From NCBI GenBank assembly GCA_965261395.1, contig OZ253462.1, positions 992,001 through 1,056,000 of the forward strand: a stretch of DNA of 64,000 bases, read 5' to 3'. Source of the stretch: Candidatus Latescibacterota bacterium (GTDB lineage Bacteria; Latescibacterota; UBA2968; UBA8231). Below the pieces are notes generated by a model. It was not told the DNA's origin. It was given only the letters and a program-made list of their open reading frames with translations, and did not search any database. A program made the position numbers and the translations under genes. Shown in pieces: positions 18,268-28,198 of this stretch (positions are counted from its first letter, which is position 1; each line of letters starts with the position of its first letter).

Positions 18268-19722
18268 TTGGTGATTCCCATCGACATGCCAGACGCGGTC
18301 AAGCGCGCAGACGGCAGTGCGCGCTTTGCGTACGTCACTTTTGTGATGATGAACGACAGCTACGTGCCCGGTGCGCTCCTGCTGGCCTACGGACTGCGCC
18401 GGCAGTGGACCGAGGCGGATATAGTCTGCTTGGTCACACCCGAAGTCACGGCCGACGCCCGCGACGCGCTCGCAGTGCTCTACGATCACGTGGTTGAGGT
18501 CGAGACCGTGTGCGTGCCACACAAGCGCAGCCACCAGCGGCGGGACCGCCCCTTTTGGTTTACCCGGCAGAATGCCTTCCGCCTCGGAGCCGACGGGGAC
18601 TTGGGCCTATCCTACGAGAAGATCGTGGTCCTCGACGCCGATGTGCTGCCGATGAAGTGGTTCGATCACCTCTTTACGCTCGACGCGCCTTCCGGGGTCT
18701 TAAACGAGAGCAAGGAGCACTGCATTGAGGAGGACGAGCAGGGCCAGTACATCGTCCCGCAAAACTTGCACGTCGGCACCGAGTGGAGGTGGCACCGCCT
18801 GTACGCGGCTTGTCCCCACGGCCAAGCCATTCCCCGAGAAATTACCGATCGGGTCGCAGCCGACCCCGGCAACAACACCGGCATCAGCGGTTCGCTCTAC
18901 GTGTGGGAACCTTCTATGCGGGAGTTTCTCGACATTTGCGAGACGATTGCCAAGCCTCCGGTGGTCGAATACGTCACGGACCTATTCGACTACCCGGACA
19001 TGCAGTACATGACGATGCGCTATTCCGGCAGTTGGAAGAGCATCGACTTGCGCTTTATAGGCTTCAAGGGCTACCCAGGGCTAAAGGCGCTCTTCGGCAC
19101 CCACTACGCGGGCTTCAAGCCTTGGTATTTCAAGCAGCCGCAACTGCTCAAGCGCTATAGTCAGTACGAGGATTTCGCATACTGGTATCGGGAGTACTTG
19201 GCCATGGTGTGGGTGGATTATCCCGATTTGCGGAAAATCAAACGGCTTGCGAGACTCGACGAGGATATCCGGGCACTGACCGGCATCCAAATCGGCGAGA
19301 TGCAAGACAGACCCTCGGAGAAAAACAATCCGCGCCAGCGAAAGGAGCACACTGTGAACATACACGTGGGTAATTTGGCAAAGACGACCAAAAAGGAGGC
19401 GCTGATCGAGCTCTTCCAACCGTATGGGAAGGTCGTGGCCGCCACCATCGCCCGAGACAAGAAGAACGGTGCCTCGCGCGGCTTCGGTTACGTGGAGATG
19501 GCTACCCGGCACGAAGGCGAAGAGGCCATCGCCCATCTCAACGACAAGGAGTTCGAGGGGCAGAAGTTGCACCTCAGCGAAGCGCACGAGAGCAAGGGCA
19601 AGGGCGGGCGCGGGTCGGGCAAGGGCGACCGCGCTGACCAGCAGCACAGTAGTTTTTTCTCTGCCCGTGGCGACCAGCACAACGCGGGAAATATGCGGCG
19701 GAGCGGACGGCGGGGTTCCTAG
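18268..19722 (+). CDS. Glycogenin-like GT8 glycosyltransferase read in frame into an RRM domain
   Basis: FAYVTF..NDSYVPGALLLAYGL, KIVVLDADVL (DxD), DMQ, HYAGFKPW; C-terminal RRM. Exact start uncertain. Confidence 0.8.
   Translation: MVIPIDMPDAVKRADGSARFAYVTFVMMNDSYVPGALLLAYGLRRQWTEADIVCLVTPEVTADARDALAVLYDHVVEVETVCVPHKRSHQRRDRPFWFTRQNAFRLGADGDLGLSYEKIVVLDADVLPMKWFDHLFTLDAPSGVLNESKEHCIEEDEQGQYIVPQNLHVGTEWRWHRLYAACPHGQAIPREITDRVAADPGNNTGISGSLYVWEPSMREFLDICETIAKPPVVEYVTDLFDYPDMQYMTMRYSGSWKSIDLRFIGFKGYPGLKALFGTHYAGFKPWYFKQPQLLKRYSQYEDFAYWYREYLAMVWVDYPDLRKIKRLARLDEDIRALTGIQIGEMQDRPSEKNNPRQRKEHTVNIHVGNLAKTTKKEALIELFQPYGKVVAATIARDKKNGASRGFGYVEMATRHEGEEAIAHLNDKEFEGQKLHLSEAHESKGKGGRGSGKGDRADQQHSSFFSARGDQHNAGNMRRSGRRGS
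19354..19722 (+). CDS. RRM RNA-binding protein, probably with its own internal start
   Basis: AAAGGAG RBS then GTG; (M)NIHVGNL RNP2, RGFGYVEM RNP1, Gly/Arg-rich tail. Confidence 0.8.
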   Translation: MNIHVGNLAKTTKKEALIELFQPYGKVVAATIARDKKNGASRGFGYVEMATRHEGEEAIAHLNDKEFEGQKLHLSEAHESKGKGGRGSGKGDRADQQHSSFFSARGDQHNAGNMRRSGRRGS

Positions 19723-22064
19723 TCTGGGCGATCATAAAGCAGCAACCGCGCGAGGATGGGGTCGTGGTCGCTGGCTTGGTTGGGGAACTCGGTGTTGACG
19801 TGGACATGGTCGAACTCGGGCTGGAGCGCGATCAGAGCCGAGCTGACCAGCAGGTGATCGAGCTGCTGGGAAATTCCCTGAAAGTTATAGGAATAGGCCA
19901 AATCTCCATCCATCGCGTCGCCGAGATTGAAGAGGAGCGGCGGAGTGCCGGCGAGCGTTTGCAGGACATCGCCCGGCGGCGGTTGTACTGGGTCGAGCGG
20001 AAACGGGCACTCGTTGAAATCCCCGAGCACGACGATGTTGGCGTTGGGATCGGCGGCCAGCAGCTCGGCGACGAGGTCGTGGATGAACGCGGCCTGCGCG
20101 AGGCGCTTGGCAAGCCCGCCATTCGTCGGCGGCTGGATTCGACCGAAGAGGGGTGGACTGCCAGACTTGGACGAGAAGTGGCAGTTGATCACCGTCAGCT
20201 TGGTTCCCTTGAAATCGAACGCGGCCTTGAGCGGTTTGCGGCTGTTGCGGAAGGCATCGTCGCCATCGGTGTCTTCAATGCGTTCCACCGAACCAATCAG
20301 GGCCACCCGACCGGGCTGGTAGAGGTACGCAACGCGGATATTGCCGCCCGGCTGGCCGCCGTCGGCCCCATCTGGGGGCGCGACATCCGCGTACTCATAC
20401 CTCGGACCACTGGCCGCAGCAATGGCGGCAATGAGCGTTTGCGCCGTCTGGTCCGCTGAAGTGGTGCCGTCGTTGACCGCGCCGCTGTTGTCCTGCACTT
20501 CCTGCAGGGCCAGCACGTCTGGTGCGCCCAAGCGATGGACAATTTGGTCGGCAATGGCCGCGAATTGACCGTCCGCTAGGTCCGCACTTTTGTCGTCGTC
20601 ATTGGGATCGAGATTGAACACGTTGAAACTGCCCACCGTCAGATGCTGGGCCGTGCCGACGAGGGTGGTCATTTCCGGCACCAAGCCAGCGCTCTCCACC
20701 ACCGGCTCGGTCAGGACGAGCACCTCAAAGTTGCCAAAGCGGTAGCTAACCGGGCCGCGCACATAGCCGAGTGCATCGCCGACCTGCGCGGCCGGCATGG
20801 CACCGGGTAGCAGACTGTCGTCGAGCTGGATGCGCTGCGGATGCAGGGTCTCCGACGTCAGATTCAACCCGCCCCGTGAGTTGAGCTGCTGCCTCGCACC
20901 AGCATCGGCGAGGACGACAATCTCGCCAAAGCGGTTGGTCGGACTAATGGCGACCGCGTCCTGCACCTCCACGAGCATGCCTTCTAGCGACTCGTAGAAG
21001 TCAATGCCGTCTTCCGCTGGGTCGAAAATTGCGAAGTTGTCGTTGTCGATCACCCTCGTCGGCGGTCGGCGGCCGGCCGCGCCAATGGCCACTGGAGCCG
21101 GTATGGGGTTGCCGGTTGACACGATCTGAATGCGGTCGGGCTGCGAGAATTCGGTTATCGACAGATTGTTGGTAGCCGCGCCGCCGGGAATGTATTCGAT
21201 CACAGTGCCGGTCACTTGTACCTCGTCGCCGATGGAGACCTTCGGGGCATTTTTGGTAAAGACGAACATCCCGTCGGATGTGCGCTCATCGCCGTCTCCG
21301 GTTGCGTCTTGGAAGTAGAAGCCATTGCGAGAGACAGCCGTTACAATGCCCCGCGTCGAGACTTGCTCGCCCTCGTGCGGCGAGGTGTGGCCAGCCCCTT
21401 GGATTTCGCAGATTCTGAGTACCGGGGGAGACGCCAGAGGGGCCGCGCTTGGGGTGTTGGCGACGATTGCCGAGTCCGTGCCGAAGACTTGGTCGGCATT
21501 TACAGCACCAAAGCTGGCCCGGGTCGGTACGCTCCAGAAAAAATCACCCGGCGCGGTGCCAGTGCCCTTGAGTTGCAGAGAAAATTCCACCGGCGTGGAA
21601 TTGGATTCGGCAACCCTGATGTCGGTGCTGGTCATGCCGTCAGCGGGTCCACCTGCTGCCGTGAAGGTCCCTTCGTAACTGAGGAACTGGACGACCTTGC
21701 CGTTGGCGACTAGGGCGATCCCGTCGGGGGCACCGTTCTGGATGCTTTTTGCAAAGCCGAAGGCGATCGTTCCGAACCCGTTGGCCTGATCCGGTATGAT
21801 CCCGCTTAAGTGCTTAGTACGGTATAAGGTGCCATTCCTCCCATTGTAGAGTGCCAGTGCCCAGCCGGAAAGATTGGTCCCGGCTGGCCCAGCGACCTCA
21901 ATGGCTTCGCCGGTATCCTTGCCGATGTTGTCGTAGTGAATTTCGTTGATGAATGCAGTTTGCCCCAGCAACGGCCCAGCCCCAATCGAGAGTAGCGAGG
22001 CGCAAAAAGCGGATCGGCGAAGCCAGCCGTGTTGGGGCTTGGAGCGTGTGTCGAACATGGTCAA
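19719..22064 (-). CDS. Secreted ExeM/NucH-like nuclease (lamin-tail-like + OB + EEP domains)
   Basis: Signal peptide, FINEIHYDN, IQGAGHTSP, ESLEGMLV, ALQEVQD, GDFN, LDH, SDHDP. Confidence 0.9.
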   Translation of the reverse strand: MTMFDTRSKPQHGWLRRSAFCASLLSIGAGPLLGQTAFINEIHYDNIGKDTGEAIEVAGPAGTNLSGWALALYNGRNGTLYRTKHLSGIIPDQANGFGTIAFGFAKSIQNGAPDGIALVANGKVVQFLSYEGTFTAAGGPADGMTSTDIRVAESNSTPVEFSLQLKGTGTAPGDFFWSVPTRASFGAVNADQVFGTDSAIVANTPSAAPLASPPVLRICEIQGAGHTSPHEGEQVSTRGIVTAVSRNGFYFQDATGDGDERTSDGMFVFTKNAPKVSIGDEVQVTGTVIEYIPGGAATNNLSITEFSQPDRIQIVSTGNPIPAPVAIGAAGRRPPTRVIDNDNFAIFDPAEDGIDFYESLEGMLVEVQDAVAISPTNRFGEIVVLADAGARQQLNSRGGLNLTSETLHPQRIQLDDSLLPGAMPAAQVGDALGYVRGPVSYRFGNFEVLVLTEPVVESAGLVPEMTTLVGTAQHLTVGSFNVFNLDPNDDDKSADLADGQFAAIADQIVHRLGAPDVLALQEVQDNSGAVNDGTTSADQTAQTLIAAIAAASGPRYEYADVAPPDGADGGQPGGNIRVAYLYQPGRVALIGSVERIEDTDGDDAFRNSRKPLKAAFDFKGTKLTVINCHFSSKSGSPPLFGRIQPPTNGGLAKRLAQAAFIHDLVAELLAADPNANIVVLGDFNECPFPLDPVQPPPGDVLQTLAGTPPLLFNLGDAMDGDLAYSYNFQGISQQLDHLLVSSALIALQPEFDHVHVNTEFPNQASDHDPILARLLLYDRPD

Positions 22065-22171
22065 CGTTCTTGGTTGGCGGCAAGCAGGAGCTGCGACGGG
22101 AGTGTTCTCAGCCGCGTTCCCGACGCAACAGCATCAATAATTCGGCGTGGCTTTGAACGCGGAGCTAAGCG

Positions 22172-22365
22172 CAATACGGTTTAGTTACGGGAACAAAGTG
22201 CGCCGACCCGAACCTGTTGCTCGTCCCCTTTTGTATCGTCATTCCGGCGAAAGCCGGAATCCAGCGGGGCGGGGGACTGGACTCCCTTCGCAGGAGTGAC
22301 ACCCCATGCAACTCCAAAAAATGAAACGGGTTAGACAATCATATCATGCTAACTAAACCGTATTG
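22172..22365. mobile_element. MITE, 194 bp, IS4-like ends
   Basis: Perfect 16-bp terminal IR caatacggtttagtta / taactaaaccgtattg; 10-bp direct repeat gagctaagcg at 22162-22171 and 22366-22375; no transposase. Confidence 0.85.
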
Positions 22366-22540
22366 GAGCTAAGCGGCTTGGCGTCTGCCTGATTCCAAGT
22401 GCCTGCGACGAGACTCTACCCGGTTCTATCCGCAGACGGTCCTTTACGACGGGTTGACCCATCTGTTTGCCATCGGCCCGTACGGGGTGAGATAAATTCT
22501 GCTGATCACCAACCGAACCTACCTCAAGTAGGGGCAGGCT

Positions 22541-24256
22541 CTATATGGCAAAGTCTGATTCACCCGTTTCGCTTGTACCTACTGATGGACCTGCTGGCTT
22601 GAACCCTTCTGTGGGCGTGTGGGAGCTGCTAGTGGGCGAGCGTTCTTCTCTGCATTTTTCACAACAAAAGCCACAGTCTGGGCAGATTAACTTGCTGCAA
22701 CGTTCACATAGCTCTGATTCACCTTCACCTAAAACTAAGGGATTCTTACCGCAGCGGGCTTTGTTTAACCATCCACCACAATAGGCAATTAATGTTGTCC
22801 ATGAATTCTCATTTGGGTCAGATTTTCCCCGTAAAATGTTAAAGCTCATTAATTGGAATACACGGAATCTGCGAATCAACTCATTTTCAGCAGTCCATAA
22901 AGTCCCTAACGCCTCGATAAGTGCATCTATGGTTTCCAGAGGATCATAAAGACCTAAAGGGTTATTACTTCCTTTGTAGAAAAGGAATTTTCTATAGTTC
23001 TCTGGCTTGAAATCAGAAACTGTTTTGGAGCAAGCAGCCATATCGAGAAAATGCTCCAATATCGTAAGAAATAGAAAAGGTAGTGAGAGTCCGTATTCTT
23101 TTATTCGGTTACACAACTGATTAAGGAAACACCATTTCCAGCGGTCAGCCTCTTTGTCTAAAATTTTCTTTAAGCCTATACCAGCCGCAATGGCTACTGG
23201 AATCAGGTCGGGCTTGTCTTTTAGCAAAGCAAGATCGGAAAAGTCTTTTAGTTCCTTTAGTGCGTTATCTCGTTCTGTGTAAACATATTCGGGATAGTCA
23301 AACACCCATGGTGGCAAAAGATAATCAATTGTCGGATTAGGATTTTTAAAATGAACCAAGCTACCAAATTCCTTCTTCAATATCTGTTGCTTTTCTAGAG
23401 TAGTTTCTCCAAGAAATAGGATTTTGGCATATTTGTGGTGTTCTGTAGGTTCCAGTAATTCAGGTGCCCGTATATAAGGAGAAAAAACACCAGAAATTAT
23501 CACGTTTTGGCCTTCTCTACTGCTCTTGAATTGTGGAATACAGTGTTCGGTATATCTATCTTTACTTTTCTGAGATCGACGCGAGTTTTTGACATCAATA
23601 GGATATCCATCAACTTTTAGGTCATAATCCCTCCAGTCGGAGTTGTTGTTTTCGTCGATCTGCGTAATCGAAATGTCTTCTACCGTTTTGGTTTTGTCTT
23701 GATTTTGATAAAAGTACATAGCTGTTTTTTCTGCAAATCTTGCGGAGAGTAAGCGGCCTAAGTGTCCTGCAGTCTTGCTGTCAGTTTTCATTAATTCTAC
23801 TAACGACATCCTATTGAGATTATTCATAGGAGTATTACACCACTTACCGACAAGCTGTATATCGTCCTCATTCAGTTCCGGAAGTGAAAAGTGTGCTCTT
23901 ACATCAGGATTCATAGCCTTTTCAGACAGATCAGAGAACCGCTTTCTGGCCATCGATTTTTGCTGGTATTCATTTGTTTTTTGAATAGTCTGCTCTGGAA
24001 TTATTCGCTTCTGATTCACCCTTGAGTCCGCACTCTCTCCCGTCACGAGGGCGATACGCCCCTCGGCAAAGTCCAGCATGGCACTGGCCGACGAGTTGGG
24101 CAGTTCTTCTTCGGGGATTTCGTCTTCGGCTTCTCTCAATTTACGCTCTGTGTTAATGTCTCGTGCGCGCTGCGACAGACTGCGACAGACTTGGAAGGCG
24201 TCGATTTCGCCTTCCAGCTTGAGGGCGACTTCCCGAGAAAACATCGACTTAGCCAT
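22541..24256 (-). CDS. Fusion ORF: RNAP omega (RpoZ)-like N-terminus + AT-rich putative PD-(D/E)XK nuclease with Cys-rich Zn finger
   Basis: DAFQVCRSLSQRARDIN...SAMLDFAEGRI is omega-like; DYDLKVDGYPIDVKNSR; CERCSKLICPDCGFCCEKC; GC falls after ~24020. Confidence 0.6.
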   Translation of the reverse strand: MAKSMFSREVALKLEGEIDAFQVCRSLSQRARDINTERKLREAEDEIPEEELPNSSASAMLDFAEGRIALVTGESADSRVNQKRIIPEQTIQKTNEYQQKSMARKRFSDLSEKAMNPDVRAHFSLPELNEDDIQLVGKWCNTPMNNLNRMSLVELMKTDSKTAGHLGRLLSARFAEKTAMYFYQNQDKTKTVEDISITQIDENNNSDWRDYDLKVDGYPIDVKNSRRSQKSKDRYTEHCIPQFKSSREGQNVIISGVFSPYIRAPELLEPTEHHKYAKILFLGETTLEKQQILKKEFGSLVHFKNPNPTIDYLLPPWVFDYPEYVYTERDNALKELKDFSDLALLKDKPDLIPVAIAAGIGLKKILDKEADRWKWCFLNQLCNRIKEYGLSLPFLFLTILEHFLDMAACSKTVSDFKPENYRKFLFYKGSNNPLGLYDPLETIDALIEALGTLWTAENELIRRFRVFQLMSFNILRGKSDPNENSWTTLIAYCGGWLNKARCGKNPLVLGEGESELCERCSKLICPDCGFCCEKCREERSPTSSSHTPTEGFKPAGPSVGTSETGESDFAI

Positions 24257-24345
24257 TATAGCTCCCAGATATCAAAGGTGGATGCATAGTTCTATATCCT
24301 CCGTGGACTGTTCATCTTGAACCACACCAAATCGTCGCGTCTTAT

Positions 24346-24939
24346 TTAACTCATCCCAGACAATAGCGCGAGCAGTTCGGCGTGGCTTTGGACGCGGAAG
24401 TCGGCCTCGGCAGTCCACAGGTCCTGACCTGCAGAGTCGTAGTAGATGGTGGTGACCTCGGCGCGGCGGCCGGCCTCTAGGTCGTAGCGGAAGTCGCCGA
24501 CCATTACGGCTGTTTCCGGCGCGGCATCCCAAGCGACAAGTAGCTTGCGAATGCCATCGGGATCGGGCTTGGGGGCGGCTTCGTCGCGGCCTAAGACGTG
24601 GACGGGATCGAAGAATTTGGCGAGCTCGCAGACGGCGAGCGTCTGCAACGCATTGGCGCGGTTGTTGCGGGTGAGGATGCCGAGTCGGGCACCGCGTTGG
24701 ACCAGTGAGGTCAGCAGCGCGTGGACGCCGGGTAGGGGCTGGGCGCGGAGGGCGTACTCGCGTTCGAGCGCGGCAAGGCGGCTTCTGAGCACGGCTGCTT
24801 CGGCGGCGGGGCGAGCGTCAATCTCTTCGAGCATCCCCTTGCCCAAAGGCAGGCCCAACTTCTGGCGCATATCGCCGAAGTCAATGGCGCTATCGGCCAG
24901 GGTGTTATCGAGATCGAAAATCCAGTGGGTGAAGTTCAT
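24346..24939 (-). CDS. HAD-superfamily hydrolase
   Basis: FDLDNTL, LTRN, KPDP, VGDFRYD. Confidence 0.9.
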   Translation of the reverse strand: MNFTHWIFDLDNTLADSAIDFGDMRQKLGLPLGKGMLEEIDARPAAEAAVLRSRLAALEREYALRAQPLPGVHALLTSLVQRGARLGILTRNNRANALQTLAVCELAKFFDPVHVLGRDEAAPKPDPDGIRKLLVAWDAAPETAVMVGDFRYDLEAGRRAEVTTIYYDSAGQDLWTAEADFRVQSHAELLALLSGMS

Positions 24940-25940
24940 ACCCCCAGAACTTCTCGTGCGGCCTGTGTAGTCTCGCGGACTTGGCCTAGGGTGCCCATCC
25001 CAAACATCGAGGCCGAGACGCCTATCTCCTTAAAGACATATTCGAATGCCTTGTGGCCAAGGTAGCGACCGCCGGCCAGCGGCTTGATGGCGATGACGGG
25101 TTTGCTGGCGTTTTTGATCGCGTCGATGGCCATATCGCGGGTGGGGAACATGAAGGTGCCCGGGGCGTTGACGGTGGTCAGGTAGCCATCGACGGGGATG
25201 TTTTCGGCCTCGAGGAGCGGTAGGGTGACACCGGCGTGGTGGACGCTGGTGATAACCGTGTCAAAGCGCTGGCGCAGAAAGCCCAAGTACTCGCGGATCA
25301 GGTCGAAGCGGCCAGTCATCGCCAGCAGGTCGATCTCAGCACCGGGGTCGGCAATGAGGATATCGCAGCCGGCGAAGAATCCCAAATATTGTTCGAGGAT
25401 GCCGTAGTCGATCTCGAAGCGGGCGGCGTCTTCTTCTGTGTAAGGTGGCACGGTCTCTGGGGTGACGATGCCGTTGAAGGTGTCGCCTAGGTTGTAGCGG
25501 ATGATGTCGTCGCGGTGGAAGTGCTCGCGGAAGGCCGCACCGCCGAGGGCTTCGTTGCAGCCATAGAAGGTCGAGTGGGCGCGCTCGGAGTAAGAGACGA
25601 TTTCGCCGTCCAAAGTCACCGGGATCAGGATATAGGCCACCATGCCGAGTTGGGTGTTGGTCTGTTGCTCGGTTTCCCAGATCGCTTGCAGGTGCAGGCG
25701 GTCGAGTTCGGGCAGCATGTGGTCCACTTGGACGGCGGTGATGCCGCCCTCTTCGACCGCGCAACGCAGAACGTCGGCTACGGATTGGACGCGGTTAAAG
25801 GCGCGAAAATTTTCGGCGTCGCGTTCCTTGTTCTGGTAGGAACAGCCATCGTAGGGATGGATGCCCATAATCAGGCGGGGAATTTCGGCTTGGCCGATCT
25901 GGGTGGTAGGGACGCTGCAACCTTCGAGATAGGTTTTCAT
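24936..25940 (-). CDS. Hypothetical protein, aldo/keto reductase-like fold
   Basis: IPRLIMG N-terminus and VIAIKPLAGG C-terminal motif. Confidence 0.55.
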   Translation of the reverse strand: MKTYLEGCSVPTTQIGQAEIPRLIMGIHPYDGCSYQNKERDAENFRAFNRVQSVADVLRCAVEEGGITAVQVDHMLPELDRLHLQAIWETEQQTNTQLGMVAYILIPVTLDGEIVSYSERAHSTFYGCNEALGGAAFREHFHRDDIIRYNLGDTFNGIVTPETVPPYTEEDAARFEIDYGILEQYLGFFAGCDILIADPGAEIDLLAMTGRFDLIREYLGFLRQRFDTVITSVHHAGVTLPLLEAENIPVDGYLTTVNAPGTFMFPTRDMAIDAIKNASKPVIAIKPLAGGRYLGHKAFEYVFKEIGVSASMFGMGTLGQVRETTQAAREVLGV

Positions 25941-25957
25941 CGCGTTGTTCCTGTTGA

Positions 25958-26959
25958 TTAGGCTTGGCGCTCGGCAAAAGGGGTCCAGCTACGGCCGGGT
26001 TTGTGGACGGGGGTCCGTTCGTAGCGGGTGCGGATTTCCTTGAATTCGGCGATGTCGGTGACTTCGCGCTGTGGATTTTCCGCGTTTTTGATGACAAAGT
26101 CGCCCTCCGTGGGCAAGCAGGCCATAGTGACCGGGTCGCGTTCTGGGTTGAAGTCTGCGGGGTCTTCGTCAATGTTATTCGGGATCTCGGCGTCTTGGTA
26201 GCGGAGATCGACGCTCCAGCGGACGATGTTGGTGTTGTTCTCAAAGGAGGCGTGCGGGGTGAGGTTGGTCATAAAGAGTACCGAGCCGGCGCGCATTGGG
26301 CAGGCCACAGGCTCGGGGGCGGGCAGGTCTTCGCGGGCGATTTCGAGATACCCGCCTTGCCCGCCGGTGTAGTGGCGGTAAACGCCGCGGCGATGCGATT
26401 TGGGGAGGACGTATAGGCAGCCGTTTTCAATGGTGGCATCGACGAGGGGAATCCAGCAGGTCACGATCAAGCTCCCGTCGCAGTGAGGCATGAAGTAACC
26501 CGAGTCTTGATGCCAAGGCACGGCACCGCGCGAGTAGCGAGGAGCCTTGGGGCGGATGCGGTACACGGACGAGCCAATGATGTCCGGGCCGACGAGGCTT
26601 TCGATGCAGGAGACGAGCGGCGGATGGCGCAAAAAGTCGAGAATGGCCTGTTCCTTGAAGCCGCCGCCGCCGTGCCCCATGATCGCTCGGGTCACGCGCT
26701 CGCCGACTGCGACATTGGCTTTGAAAAGGGAGCCGAGCCGGGTTTCAAAGGGTTCGGCGGCAAAGGTCTCTGCGCCGAGTAGCCCTTCTTTTTGCAAGGT
26801 GGTACACGTCTGGTCAATGACGGCGGTGAGGCCGTCATTGAGGGGTTGCAGATCGGCTTGGGAGTAGATTTCTTCTTTGACTACGTAGCCGAGATCGTGG
26901 AATTGCTGGCGTTCGGCAGTGGTTAGGCCCATAACATGCTCCGGGTGAAAGGTCGTCAA
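25958..26959 (-). CDS. PhyH family dioxygenase
   Basis: PWHQDSGY, WIPLVDATIENGCL, TPHAS, RWSVDLRY; start may be the downstream ATG (MGLT). Confidence 0.9.
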   Translation of the reverse strand: MTTFHPEHVMGLTTAERQQFHDLGYVVKEEIYSQADLQPLNDGLTAVIDQTCTTLQKEGLLGAETFAAEPFETRLGSLFKANVAVGERVTRAIMGHGGGGFKEQAILDFLRHPPLVSCIESLVGPDIIGSSVYRIRPKAPRYSRGAVPWHQDSGYFMPHCDGSLIVTCWIPLVDATIENGCLYVLPKSHRRGVYRHYTGGQGGYLEIAREDLPAPEPVACPMRAGSVLFMTNLTPHASFENNTNIVRWSVDLRYQDAEIPNNIDEDPADFNPERDPVTMACLPTEGDFVIKNAENPQREVTDIAEFKEIRTRYERTPVHKPGRSWTPFAERQA

Positions 26960-26980
26960 AGGGTATCCCCTCTGTCCGCG

Positions 26981-28198
26981 CTAGTCAATGGCACCCCGGA
27001 ACAGCAATTTCCTCGCGGCCTCATTCTCAGACGCGAACAGAAGTGCCGCTGCGCTGTCGAGGTGTACGCCCGCCCGCCCGTCCGCTGCTGCTTGCTGGCG
27101 AAGCTGGTATAGGGCGATGGGCAGCCGCAGATCTTCTGGGCTGTACGGAAAGGTTTTGCCGGCCTGCTTTTTGCGGTAGTCCTGTAGCACTTCGAGATAG
27201 CGATAGCCGAATTCTGTCGTCGGCTCGATTATGGTGCCCTCGCCGAAATCGTTCCAAGTAACGATCTGGATCAGCGACGCGCGCTCCCCGGCGCGTTCTA
27301 GCGTCTCGTCAAAAACCGCACCCTCTTGGTCGTCTAGGTACCCGTAGCTTTCGCGCACACCGGCTTGCTCGTAGATGTCGTGGAACTTGGGGAACGCCGT
27401 GCCGACGCCGCCCTTCTCGTAGAGCTGGCTTAGATATGTACGCCAAGCGGCCGGAGGCACGACGCGGCCGTCGTGTACTGGAGGCCAGCCGAACACCCCA
27501 TCAGCTCCTTCTTGCAGTGAGTTCAGGGTGTAGAAGTACGGAGGTTGCGGCAAGCCCGAAAATAGCTCCTTCCACTCCGCCCCTTTGAAATACTGCGGGC
27601 CGAATACGAGAAGCAGGGGCCGACCCGCGATTTTGGCGTATTCGTCGGCGACAAACCAGTGGTCCTGCATCCAGCGCAAGACCTCCTGGCCGTGGCTAAG
27701 GGCTTGGTTTTCGCGGATAATCCCGCCGTTGACGAGGTGCTTTACCGTTTGGTCTTCGTAACAAATGGCAAAGCTCAATCCGGCCTTTTTGATGTAGGTG
27801 ATTAGGTGGTTTGTATTGCGGTGGATCGCGGCGTAATCGTAGTGATCTTTGGTGCCGTACCAGTCGATGATCGCGCCGCCAATGCCCGCGAATTTCATAA
27901 GCAATACATGACATTCCAATGCGTGTGGATCGTTTGAATCGTACGGCCCGATCAATGGGTAGTAATGAGAGGCTATTTCGCGGCGGCCATCGTCGGCGAT
28001 GGTGTCGGGATCAAAGTGATTCATCGTCCAGTGCCAGCCCCACTCGCCGCTGACCGGTTTCGACGCATACCAGGGCATGTAGTGGACCATTATTTGGGGG
28101 CTTGCCGCAGACAGCGGCTGAATGTCCGGATCAACGAGGCTTTTGACGCAGGAGTACAGCGACACACAGCAGAAGGCGATGAGCGGGAGGCGTTTCAT
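26981..28198 (-). CDS. GH99/GH71-like glycoside hydrolase, probable lipoprotein
   Basis: HYMPWY, SHYYPLIGPYDS, TWNDFGEGTIIEP; lipobox-like LYSC. Confidence 0.8.
   Translation of the reverse strand: MKRLPLIAFCCVSLYSCVKSLVDPDIQPLSAASPQIMVHYMPWYASKPVSGEWGWHWTMNHFDPDTIADDGRREIASHYYPLIGPYDSNDPHALECHVLLMKFAGIGGAIIDWYGTKDHYDYAAIHRNTNHLITYIKKAGLSFAICYEDQTVKHLVNGGIIRENQALSHGQEVLRWMQDHWFVADEYAKIAGRPLLLVFGPQYFKGAEWKELFSGLPQPPYFYTLNSLQEGADGVFGWPPVHDGRVVPPAAWRTYLSQLYEKGGVGTAFPKFHDIYEQAGVRESYGYLDDQEGAVFDETLERAGERASLIQIVTWNDFGEGTIIEPTTEFGYRYLEVLQDYRKKQAGKTFPYSPEDLRLPIALYQLRQQAAADGRAGVHLDSAAALLFASENEAARKLLFRGAID

Follow-up and report, generated by a model that had tools for sequence, protein, structure and literature searches.

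A gene for an RNA polymerase subunit has been copied and joined to a gene for a nuclease-like protein in a Latescibacterota bacterium, and the resulting fusion gene is intact. It lies on the minus strand of the stretch of 64,000 nucleotides that was analysed here (the window), part of a genome of one contig of 6.55 Mb (G000; its contig coordinates are marked C1). The first 78 of the 571 encoded residues are a paralog of what we conclude to be the divergent omega subunit (RpoZ) of this genus. The remainder belongs to a family of proteins that share a nuclease-like body and differ in the N-terminal part, here called the head. In the nearest relatives the head is of the Tudor type that is known from PcrA and UvrD; a segment of rpoZ has replaced it in the window, and in another lineage a complete alpha subunit (RpoA) stands in this position. 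We read the protein as a mobile, single-gene, defence-type nuclease that is docked on RNA polymerase, at a probability of about one half. The gene consists of the following parts:

22541-24256, minus strand: fusion open reading frame (ORF) of 571 amino acids (protein P0001), with its stop codon at 22541-22543, tiled by contigs from public sequencing runs
24023-24256, minus strand: omega (RpoZ)-like head, codons 1-78, a copy of the genome's stand-alone 81-residue gene
23906-24022, minus strand: junction and conserved linker with a long helix, residues 79-117 (helix 88-115, predicted local distance difference test score (pLDDT) above 90)
23252-23905, minus strand: PD-(D/E)xK-like nuclease domain, residues ~118-335, with the invariant motif and the fold matches
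23729-23731 (E176), 23621-23623 (D212) and 23588-23596 (D221-V-K223), minus strand: codons of the motif
22862-23251, minus strand: helical middle domain, residues ~336-465, without informative match
22637-22861, minus strand: C-terminal beta-rich Cys-cluster domain, residues ~466-540, with nine Cys in conserved columns
22544-22636, minus strand: disordered tail rich in Pro, Ser, Thr and Gly, residues 541-571 (pLDDT below 50)

The extent of the ORF agrees with a preliminary description of this stretch, and all 571 codons are open, with zero internal stops. The host-like composition of the first ~78 codons and the AT-rich remainder, both noted in that description, were also found. The GC content of codons 1-78 is 0.568 (0.641 at third codon positions, GC3), as compared to 0.553 (GC3 0.610) for the stand-alone rpoZ-like gene of the same genome, and that of codons 79-540 is 0.395 (GC3 0.368) against 0.593 for the whole genome; the tail, codons 541-571, has 0.548 (GC3 0.452). 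Along the DNA, the GC content goes from ~0.60 in the flanks to 0.38-0.40 between ~22650 and 24000. The homology to rpoZ stops after codon 78, and the homology to the nuclease-type family starts at RVNQKR. Mis-assembly of rpoZ with a foreign gene would give the same abrupt change of composition at the junction, and an intact-looking gene may still be an untranslated pseudogene, but either is hardly conceivable here. The junction at ~24023 is bridged with 0 differences by 678-nucleotide contigs (23555-24232) from two public runs of two studies, one of which may be the sample behind the window's own assembly, and a 417-nucleotide contig of a third study covers 23989-24405. Since contigs of separate studies cross the junction, with no stop or frameshift, and since the same fusion is carried by database proteins, of which at least ten others share the omega-nuclease architecture, the junction is not an assembly artefact. 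Furthermore, the head differs by 13% in DNA from the resident rpoZ, so it is a different locus, and every family-invariant residue is present in the open frame. The ORF is a genuine, intact fusion gene. A metatranscriptome run gave contigs over 22423-22573, 23240-23311 and 23426-23743 (1, 7 and 12 differences), with most of the gene uncovered; these may originate from a related allele or from library DNA.

At C1:691714-691959 lies the parent of the head, an ORF of 81 amino acids that stands alone between genes of the PhyH and aldo/keto-reductase types. Codons 1-78 of the fusion match it over C1:691714-691947 with 85% identity in amino acids (E 9e-34) and 87% in nucleotides. This bears out the omega-like pattern that had been noticed in the head, as well as the suggestion that the head is a paralog of another rpoZ elsewhere in the genome. 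Small proteins of the stand-alone type form 74 database clusters at E ≤0.01, mostly of 74-87 amino acids; they carry no precomputed Pfam annotation, and those with a name are called hypothetical. The probable omega gene of the genus (L002:1501-1746, with matching loci L006-L014) is likewise hypothetical in public records. A profile of the small proteins matched 18 of 31 genomes (G000 and 30 relatives), namely G000 and 17 of the 18 other genomes of the genus, and had no match in 12 genomes of two other families. Each matching relative within the genus has one such gene, and G000 alone of the 31 genomes has two. Because the gene occurs once per genome in 17 of 18 genus relatives, and because the omega family PF01192 has matches in 0 of these 18, the 81-residue gene is the sole candidate for omega in this genus.

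Structure prediction points in the same direction. An AlphaFold (AF2) model of the 81-residue family has three helices (pLDDT 79), and the best 50 rows of a Foldseek search with it were all RNA polymerase entries, one of them an RpoZ complex, with chains of 55-108 amino acids. When an independent aligner compared the model with 48,161 representative chains, omega-size chains (56-108 amino acids) of RNA polymerase entries took ranks 1-12, with Z 6.4-4.5 and 51-73 residues aligned; all eight chains with Z of at least 5 are of omega size, and the first other protein follows at rank 13. As far as a predicted model can tell, the evidence for omega is the specificity of this list and not any single score. 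The omega fold that the preliminary description expected at the N-terminus is thus found by fold searches of the parent model, which has the omega/Rpb6 fold, whereas Pfam and NCBIfam do not detect it; the only model of the head proper is that within the full protein, with pLDDT 40-77.

Classically, rpoZ lies between gmk and coaBC, an arrangement that is common for omega and not obligatory. The absence of these neighbours from the window, on which the paralogy had partly been based, is real and also holds for the stand-alone gene; it is not diagnostic, as the housekeeping copy of the genus is equally without them. The sister family does have the order gmk-rpoZ-coaBC: two sub-threshold matches to PF01192 are ORFs of 84-88 amino acids between a guanylate-kinase-like gene and coaBC, and the omega encoded there matches the parent profile with E 8e-4 over 38 columns. 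The coaBC gene of G000 (C1:4682498-4683685) has no small omega-like ORF adjoining it. Upstream of it (C1:4683688-4684242) an ORF for a P-loop kinase-like protein of 184 amino acids and a YicC-like ORF are found where the sister family has gmk and rpoZ, and the best gmk-like tblastn match in G000 is weak (E 0.002, C1:5687739-5688197). We conclude that the 81-residue gene is the divergent rpoZ of the genus, moved away from its classical neighbours, and that the head in the window is its paralog.

The fused copy retains all 30 invariant columns of the small-protein family. Pairwise ratios of nonsynonymous to synonymous substitution rates (dN/dS) between the head and ten stand-alone genes are 0.19-0.46, as compared to 0.26-0.60 among the stand-alone genes themselves, and the codons changed solely in the fused copy comprise six synonymous-type and five replacement changes; these numbers are small, yet compatible with a constrained domain. 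The rpoZ piece is 84-88% identical in nucleotides to the rpoZ-like loci in the majority of the genus genomes that were searched (74-77% in three, and one match is partial). Because it is no closer to the rpoZ of G000 itself (87%), the capture was not recent, or was made in another member of the genus. In a quick tree of omega heads (71 columns, with 49 of its 79 inner branches left without resolution) the fused heads fall within the stand-alone genes of the genus, with five of them on one long, well-supported branch, and the fusion label needs at least two changes; the omega fusion may still have had a single origin, with which the tree is compatible. Prediction of a complex between the omega head and two beta-prime fragments of the same genome scored 0.77, against 0.69 for a control with an unrelated partner, and counts neither way.

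The surroundings of the gene contain the record of its arrival and of the exchange of its head. The elements concerned are:

22164-24375: insert of ~2.2 kb, missing in the closest relatives (G041 and G010)
24346-24939, minus strand: HAD-type gene
22141-22163, plus strand: left 23-base direct repeat, a remnant of the HAD-type gene's 3' end
24376-24398, plus strand: right 23-base direct repeat, which falls within the 3' end of the HAD-type gene and agrees with the left one at 22 of 23 bases
24257-24284, minus strand: 28-base co-captured rpoZ leader with a ribosome-binding-like site, GGGAGC; the homology to the rpoZ locus extends to 24284
24249-24287, minus strand: 12-codon upstream ORF, opened by the relic ATG of a Tudor-headed ancestor (24285-24287); its TAA (24249-24251) overlaps the new ATG
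22172-22312 and 22409-22549: two dispersed repeat elements that take up the insert downstream of the stop codon, with copies in this and related genomes

In G041, of which the flanks have 93-95% DNA identity to those of the window, and in G010, an extracellular-nuclease-type gene (window 19719-22064) is directly joined to the HAD-type gene. At the same site G018, of the same genus, has a family member of 592 amino acids, with 75% DNA identity in the core and a 197-base duplicate of the end of the HAD gene. A 592-residue member also occupies this site in L025, a locus labelled uncultured Latescibacteria with the same gene order. The allele of G018 and L025 has a different head, of the Tudor type. 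The window and the L025 allele are alike upstream through the ATG of that allele and then diverge; after the relic ATG, alignment with the organism's own rpoZ locus shows that the window runs through 28 bases of rpoZ leader into rpoZ codons 1-78. Since the window keeps the upstream DNA of the Tudor allele through its ATG and then turns to rpoZ, a segment of 262 bases (leader plus codons 1-78) has, on this alignment, replaced a PcrA/UvrD-type Tudor head. The preliminary description had proposed that an acquired nuclease-like gene captured the 3' end of an rpoZ-like gene. The rpoZ origin stands, but the captured piece is not the 3' end only: it comprises the leader and 78 of the 81 codons, with the nuclease part joined at the 3' end of the rpoZ ORF. 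The direction of the event was different as well, since the alignment of alleles indicates that a head was replaced in a Tudor-headed gene of the family, and not that a nuclease gene was captured into rpoZ.

The repeated use of one chromosomal site (occupied in G000, G018 and L025, with a remnant in G038) could also be explained by a selfish, homing-like cassette that spreads by cutting empty sites without benefit to the host, the heads being incidental or an aid in target choice. That the 2.2-kb insert holds one gene and is bordered by a 23-base direct repeat would suit such an element; the best fold matches of the body include a homing endonuclease of PD-(D/E)xK type, and decayed copies exist, including fragments with stop codons in G007 and G004. 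Nevertheless, this explanation is very unlikely. The flanking repeat is a duplicated gene end, which extends over 197 bases in G018, and fits recombination between flanking homologies better than target-site duplication, and polymerase subunits would be odd targeting domains for homing. Moreover, no relatives were found in the phage collections that were searched to a limited extent: none in 50,697 phage records (tblastn), none confirmed in a pattern scan of IMG/VR, and no PHROGs family. The last codons of the HAD-type gene occur in the genus as two allele types (window 24346-24398 and 22120-22163), of which G000 has one at the end of the live gene and the other as the relic left of the insert. 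The presence of both types suggests that the cassette came in by recombination with the flank of a donor. A tRNA search of the window found none, and hence there is no tRNA-type attachment site.

The repeats downstream of the fusion gene are observations in their own right. The ~140-base repeat at 22409-22549, which follows straight after the fusion stop, has no Rfam match and occurs as copies of 70-77% identity at no fewer than three other positions in G000, at least seven in G018, and more in other genomes of the genus; its nature may be that of a miniature mobile element, or else of a structured RNA. Another short dispersed repeat (22179-22336) gives a translation with an IPAFAGMT-type motif, and over it the summed depth of metagenome contigs exceeds that of the flanks by a factor of hundreds to thousands, with many loose contig ends starting at 22234-22275. 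A search with Rfam over 20000-27000 gave a single row at chance level.

The body of the protein belongs to a large family, of which 222 proteins were found at E ≤0.001 in a word-indexed search (7,999 scored candidates, at least 120 examined). An exhaustive search gave 796 representative clusters (50% identity) at the same threshold, 721 at 1e-10 and 481 at 1e-30. The region shared in the family is residues ~85/165-540, and the part that precedes it varies in length and kind. Twelve columns are invariant in 125 aligned members: A172, R173, E176, D212, D221, K223, N224, G283, W317, P433, D438 and C493. The D...D-V-K motif of the preliminary description corresponds to D212...D221-V222-K223, and the positions E176, D212, D221 and K223 are conserved in 125 of 125 members. 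Its Cys cluster is made up of nine residues (C493, C502, C517, C520, C525, C528, C531, C532 and C535), most of them at positions with at least 90% conservation.

In a model of the full-length protein (pLDDT 85.4, predicted template modelling score 0.82), E176 is in helix 160-186, D212 directly precedes strand 213-215, and D221-V-K223 is in strand 218-226. These positions agree with the PD-(D/E)xK catalytic motif, in which a helix contributes E, the beginning of a strand D, and the strand after it (D/E)xK. The best structural matches of residues ~127-330 are NhoI (Z 6.8), I-Ssp6803I (6.7) and Hjc resolvases (6.5, 6.3 and 5.7), followed by fusellovirus D212, a restriction endonuclease-DNA complex (3ndh, Z 5.5), MspI and a domain of Eco15I; the influenza PA endonuclease matches the same region at Z 5.1-5.3. 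Overall, these matches have Z 6.8-5.1 and root-mean-square deviations of 3.3-5.0 over 102-136 residues, which is below the levels that the tools call clear. With the small nucleases NhoI, I-Ssp6803I, Hjc, D212 and MspI the protein has the E / D / (D/E)xK arrangement in common; it differs from them by having long added domains, and at 5-13% identity and Z 5.4-6.8 there is no relation at the sequence level. Foldseek rows for the nuclease part are weak and dominated by HincII, EcoRV and NhoI (E 0.16-1), a family profile gave only chance-level rows against solved structures, and the best ESM Atlas score of the core (0.77) was to an unnamed cluster and is uninformative. With motif and fold taken together, a nuclease of PD-(D/E)xK type is the best reading of the modelled body, and the AT-rich core, the conserved motif and the fold matches agree with the earlier suggestion of an acquired, nuclease-like gene. 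No informative structural match was obtained for the other two domains: the helical middle domain matched only designed repeat proteins and polymerase sub-domains (Z 5-6.5), and the Cys-cluster domain, with strands in 466-491 at pLDDT ~90, probably binds zinc. The tail of residues 541-571 ends in ESDFAI or GSDGYPPY; it is kept among the closest relatives whatever their head, and absent from Poribacteria members.

The comparison of heads across the family suggests a connection of this nuclease-like body to transcription. The omega protein has matches in 13 longer database proteins, of which 12 belong to the nuclease-type family, whole or as fragments, and one is a read-through call of the upstream PhyH-type gene. 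The cores of the omega-headed relatives are 65-88% identical to that of the window, with heads and junction much more alike, and one fragment has an almost identical omega head on a clearly different core. Such like heads on unlike cores point to recombination among alleles. The Tudor-type heads were recognized with PF21196 (PcrA/UvrD Tudor, cut-off 23.9 bits), which scored above its cut-off for three proteins (P0058, 28.6 bits; P0129, 24.2; P0341, 24.1) and is precomputed for three further members. The heads of the nearest relatives, which are negative with Pfam, match the Tudor heads with a hhalign probability of 99.9% (E 5e-34). In BLAST clusters, omega, Tudor and TPR heads fell together because of the linker that they share, and the census was made with profile searches: of 241 family N-termini of at least 30 residues (from 266 proteins), an iterated profile assigned 69 as Tudor-like and 12 as omega.

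The strongest counterpart of the omega fusion was found in L026, a metagenome-assembled genome (MAG) labelled Poribacteria. It encodes an 876-residue family member (L026:5170-7800; G168:C122:8635-11262) of which the first 320 residues are a complete RpoA (PF01000, 3e-30; PF03118, 9e-25; PF01193, 8e-23), and it also has an ordinary rpsK-rpsD-rpoA-rplQ operon (housekeeping copy at L040:1501-2466). The fused and operon copies are 93% identical in amino acids (299/321) and 91% in DNA, with a synonymous divergence (dS) of 0.38 and dN/dS of 0.08; the last ~43 bases of their leaders are identical, and the coding DNA differs by 9%. Two phyla have thus each joined their own leader and whole polymerase subunit gene to the same nuclease-type core. 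At one syntenic site in three Poribacteria genomes three different heads are found, i.e. a Cys-rich N-terminus, a Tudor-like head and RpoA.

Since the omega and RpoA pieces both include a leader with a ribosome-binding-like site, and the old start codon in the window remains as a short upstream ORF, it may be argued that the housekeeping genes gave no more than a ribosome-binding site and a start, and that the omega residues are passengers in a neutral chimera. Such a capture of expression signals seems quite improbable to us. The ancestor already had its own start and a GGAGGA site; nearly whole ORFs were retained (78 of 81 and 321 of 321 codons) under purifying selection (dN/dS ~0.3 and 0.08); the omega-headed form persists over cores that have diverged as far as described above; and both captured genes encode polymerase subunits.

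Other heads are more diverse. A BLAST cluster of 25 heads included six with a cold-shock hit, three of them above the Pfam cut-off, and a cluster of seven had hits to the C-terminal domain of GreA/GreB (PF01272); with NCBIfam greA the latter gave E 7e-4 to 3e-3, far below the cut-off, and a Gre-C identity of these heads is suggestive only. Additional domains are TPR (15 of the 119 near homologues listed), WD40 (2), LRR, Lcl_C and a C-terminal HRDC domain (2). A metagenome scan yielded eight loci, by eye with one Tudor-like and one cold-shock-like head, and no further polymerase subunit head among them. The first residues of the heads of P0067 (L024:5563-7311) and P0092 resemble a GIY-YIG nuclease motif; P0067 has no match in Pfam. 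In another Poribacteria-labelled locus (L023:5530-9003) a Tudor-headed member is interrupted by a transposase-like ORF of 477 amino acids on the opposite strand, and its C-terminal Cys-cluster part survives as a separate ORF of 102 amino acids.

The C-terminal Tudor domain of PcrA/UvrD is reported to contact RNA polymerase (PMC5397179, PMC8318588). Omega, alpha, this Tudor domain and, if real, Gre-C each join RNA polymerase, at different sites, and a docked nuclease is favoured for that reason. The preliminary description had suggested that a nuclease could be tethered to RNA polymerase if the fusion is translated, and that suggestion is strengthened by the finding of other polymerase-linked head types in the family. 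Omega and alpha have free C-termini within RNA polymerase, and the nuclease is joined at the C-terminal side of both heads. The main competing explanation is that the omega or alpha copy serves as bait, as in an integrated decoy, and that a phage factor that binds or modifies it switches the nuclease on, with abortive infection as the result. In agreement with this, both subunit heads, omega and RpoA, closely resemble the host's own proteins and are under purifying selection, which bait requires, and TPR, WD40 and LRR heads are typical protein-sensing modules. The decoy suits omega and alpha, but neither the Tudor-type heads, which are the commonest recognized type (69/241), nor the Gre-C-like ones, as these dock on polymerase and are not parts of it. 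A phage factor directed against omega was neither sought nor encountered. We consider it unlikely as an explanation of the family.

The distribution of the gene is that of a mobile element. Of 168 sampled genomes from the phylum, five, all in the genus of the window, have a match at E ≤1e-10; two of these copies are intact (G000 and G018) and three decayed. The named loci are from MAGs labelled Poribacteria (6), Latescibacteria or Latescibacterota (2) and Aggregatilinea (1), and in nine of nine the core is AT-rich (GC 0.38-0.43, flanks 0.48-0.61). No partner gene is conserved across loci and the neighbours differ from locus to locus; frequent ones, named by eye from translations, are transposase-like, PIN-like and recombinase-like ORFs. 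Relatives, annotated as hypothetical, are also present on six plasmids from cultured bacteria. On a Sinorhizobium plasmid the relative is located directly before GajA and GajB of a Gabija system (E 1e-227 and 2e-176), on a Microvirga plasmid it adjoins a Dnd-associated methyltransferase, on a Variovorax plasmid an IS630 transposase, and on a Synechocystis plasmid it is fragmented among toxin-antitoxin genes.

These data also bear on a possible housekeeping role, in which the nuclease would act at stalled polymerase in transcription-coupled repair, R-loop removal or transcription-replication conflicts. The Tudor head is the type by which PcrA/UvrD is reported to contact polymerase (PMC5397179 and PMC8318588), and Hjc-type resolvases are among the fold matches. 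However, the gene is very patchy (5/168 genomes, three of them with decayed copies), it lies in an insert that is missing from the nearest relatives, its composition is foreign in every host, its heads are swapped, and its neighbours include Gabija and toxin-antitoxin genes and insertion sequences. Such a helper function in transcription is highly doubtful. A role in conflict or defence is preferred over housekeeping because of the patchy distribution with decayed copies, the foreign composition, the shuffling of heads, the lack of a partner gene and the company that the gene keeps.

Several results weigh against a docked defence nuclease. As to the omega head, PF01192 finds nothing in G000 and gives a match in 14 of 14 control genomes, TIGR00690 finds nothing in G000 and matches in 7 of 14, the stand-alone parent has no Pfam match (E up to 0.01), and the head itself matches no omega sequence model. 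An omega-family profile gave chance-level rows against solved structures, the Foldseek E-values (0.4-4.4) and the Z-scores of the independent aligner are individually weak, and the hhalign probability between the sister-family omega and the parent profile is 24%. As to the nuclease, all fold matches are below Z 8, where the tool warns of common arrangements, and Foldseek gives no nuclease match at E ≤0.001. The whole fusion protein has zero Pfam and zero PADLOC families (both at E up to 10) and no NCBIfam or PHROGs match; the core, too, is without a family in these four sets, and a defence role therefore lacks an anchor in experiment. As to the heads, the census combines two overlapping, non-random samples, and most heads are unannotated, with 63 of 76 and 56 of 61 proteins in two scans lacking a Pfam family at E ≤0.001. 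A Tudor fold can bind many things, and the TPR, WD40, LRR, cold-shock and Lcl_C heads have no known link to RNA polymerase. The PF01272 scores are all below the cut-off of 26.9 bits (P0124, 24.2; P0151, 20.8; P0156, 26.1), and a profile of the Gre-like subgroup gave chance-level rows against solved structures and did not recover Gre factors. Adjacency to defence islands was found at four plasmid loci, with a recognized system at one only. Finally, no promoter-like site was found on the strand of the gene in a scan of 22000-24700, which gave one promoter-like site on the plus strand, zero terminators and nothing above shuffled background; that the fusion gene is co-transcribed with the upstream HAD-type gene is only a guess.

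If the protein is a docked nuclease, the omega head would bring it to RNA polymerase by occupying the omega site on beta-prime, and the other heads would dock it at their own sites. A minority of the polymerase molecules would then carry the enzyme. Its target would be nucleic acid at the transcription complex, and its role that of an effector in conflicts or against phages: it would cleave template DNA or nascent nucleic acid when the polymerase is on foreign DNA or subverted by it. In one possible version cutting would be triggered once a phage modifies or stalls the polymerase; in another, the polymerase would serve as a motor for scanning transcribed DNA. A more far-reaching proposal, which we put forward tentatively and hold to be possible rather than probable, is that the family is a widespread class of single-gene immune nucleases that install themselves in host transcription through docking domains or copied polymerase subunits (omega in a Latescibacteria-like genus, a complete alpha in Poribacteria), so that part of the polymerases, thus armed, would patrol transcribed DNA with polymerase as motor and sensor, and that gain their heads by recombination with housekeeping genes.

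It is of interest to compare the fusion with known systems. Like RpoZ (PF01192, TIGR00690), the parent is a single-copy gene for ~81 amino acids of which the predicted fold matches omega, Rpb6 and RpoK chains first; unlike it, both head and parent escape these two models, and the head is the N-terminus of a 571-residue protein encoded by a second gene copy. The Shedu protein SduA, a DUF4263 nuclease, has hypervariable N-terminal domains. Judged by its general properties it resembles the fusion family in being a single protein with a PD-(D/E)xK-type nuclease, a variable N-terminal part for sensing or targeting, and no methyltransferase or fixed partner. It differs in that the Pfam and PADLOC sets, taken to include Shedu models, do not match the fusion, which has extra helical and Cys-cluster domains and relatives with polymerase subunits or docking domains as heads. 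The PcrA/UvrD Tudor domain (PF21196) forms the N-terminus in the nearest relatives, among them the allele that occupies the same chromosomal site as the fusion gene, whereas omega has taken its place in the window protein; the scores of the relatives are modest (24-29 bits) and their binding to polymerase is putative. The influenza PA endonuclease offers the concept of a nuclease carried by a polymerase subunit, but it belongs to a viral RNA-dependent polymerase and cuts capped RNA, and the weak similarity probably reflects membership of the superfamily only.

The nearest published idea is TPR-GreA/B-C-PIN, a conflict system associated with RNA polymerase that was predicted by Kaur et al. 2021 (PMC8195603); it has variable N-terminal effectors and is predicted to act on virus-hijacked polymerase. 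In both cases a polymerase-docking domain is coupled to a nuclease in what are mostly stand-alone genes. The predicted system combines a PIN nuclease and constant docking with a varying effector, whereas the fusion family combines a constant, PD-(D/E)xK-like nuclease with a varying head, and only the latter uses the polymerase subunits omega and alpha themselves. Reports of omega- or alpha-nuclease fusions, or of this nuclease-type family, were not found in full-text searches, outside which most subscription journals fall.

The genus-wide omega subunit that escapes the standard models represents a gap in annotation, and the fusion is a clean case of natural domain shuffling that involves a housekeeping and a mobile gene, and its breakpoints are known to the exact base. 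The idea is open to laboratory tests with plasmid-borne homologues in cultured bacteria, namely Variovorax paradoxus VAI-C (QRF63307.1), Sinorhizobium sp. CCBAU 05631 (WP_157213211.1) and Microvirga ossetica (WP_099516209.1). If docking and defence are indeed what these proteins serve, paralogs of polymerase subunits fused to a nuclease would give conflict systems a novel means of reaching a target, in which the enzyme would join the transcription complex instead of recognizing a DNA sequence or modification.

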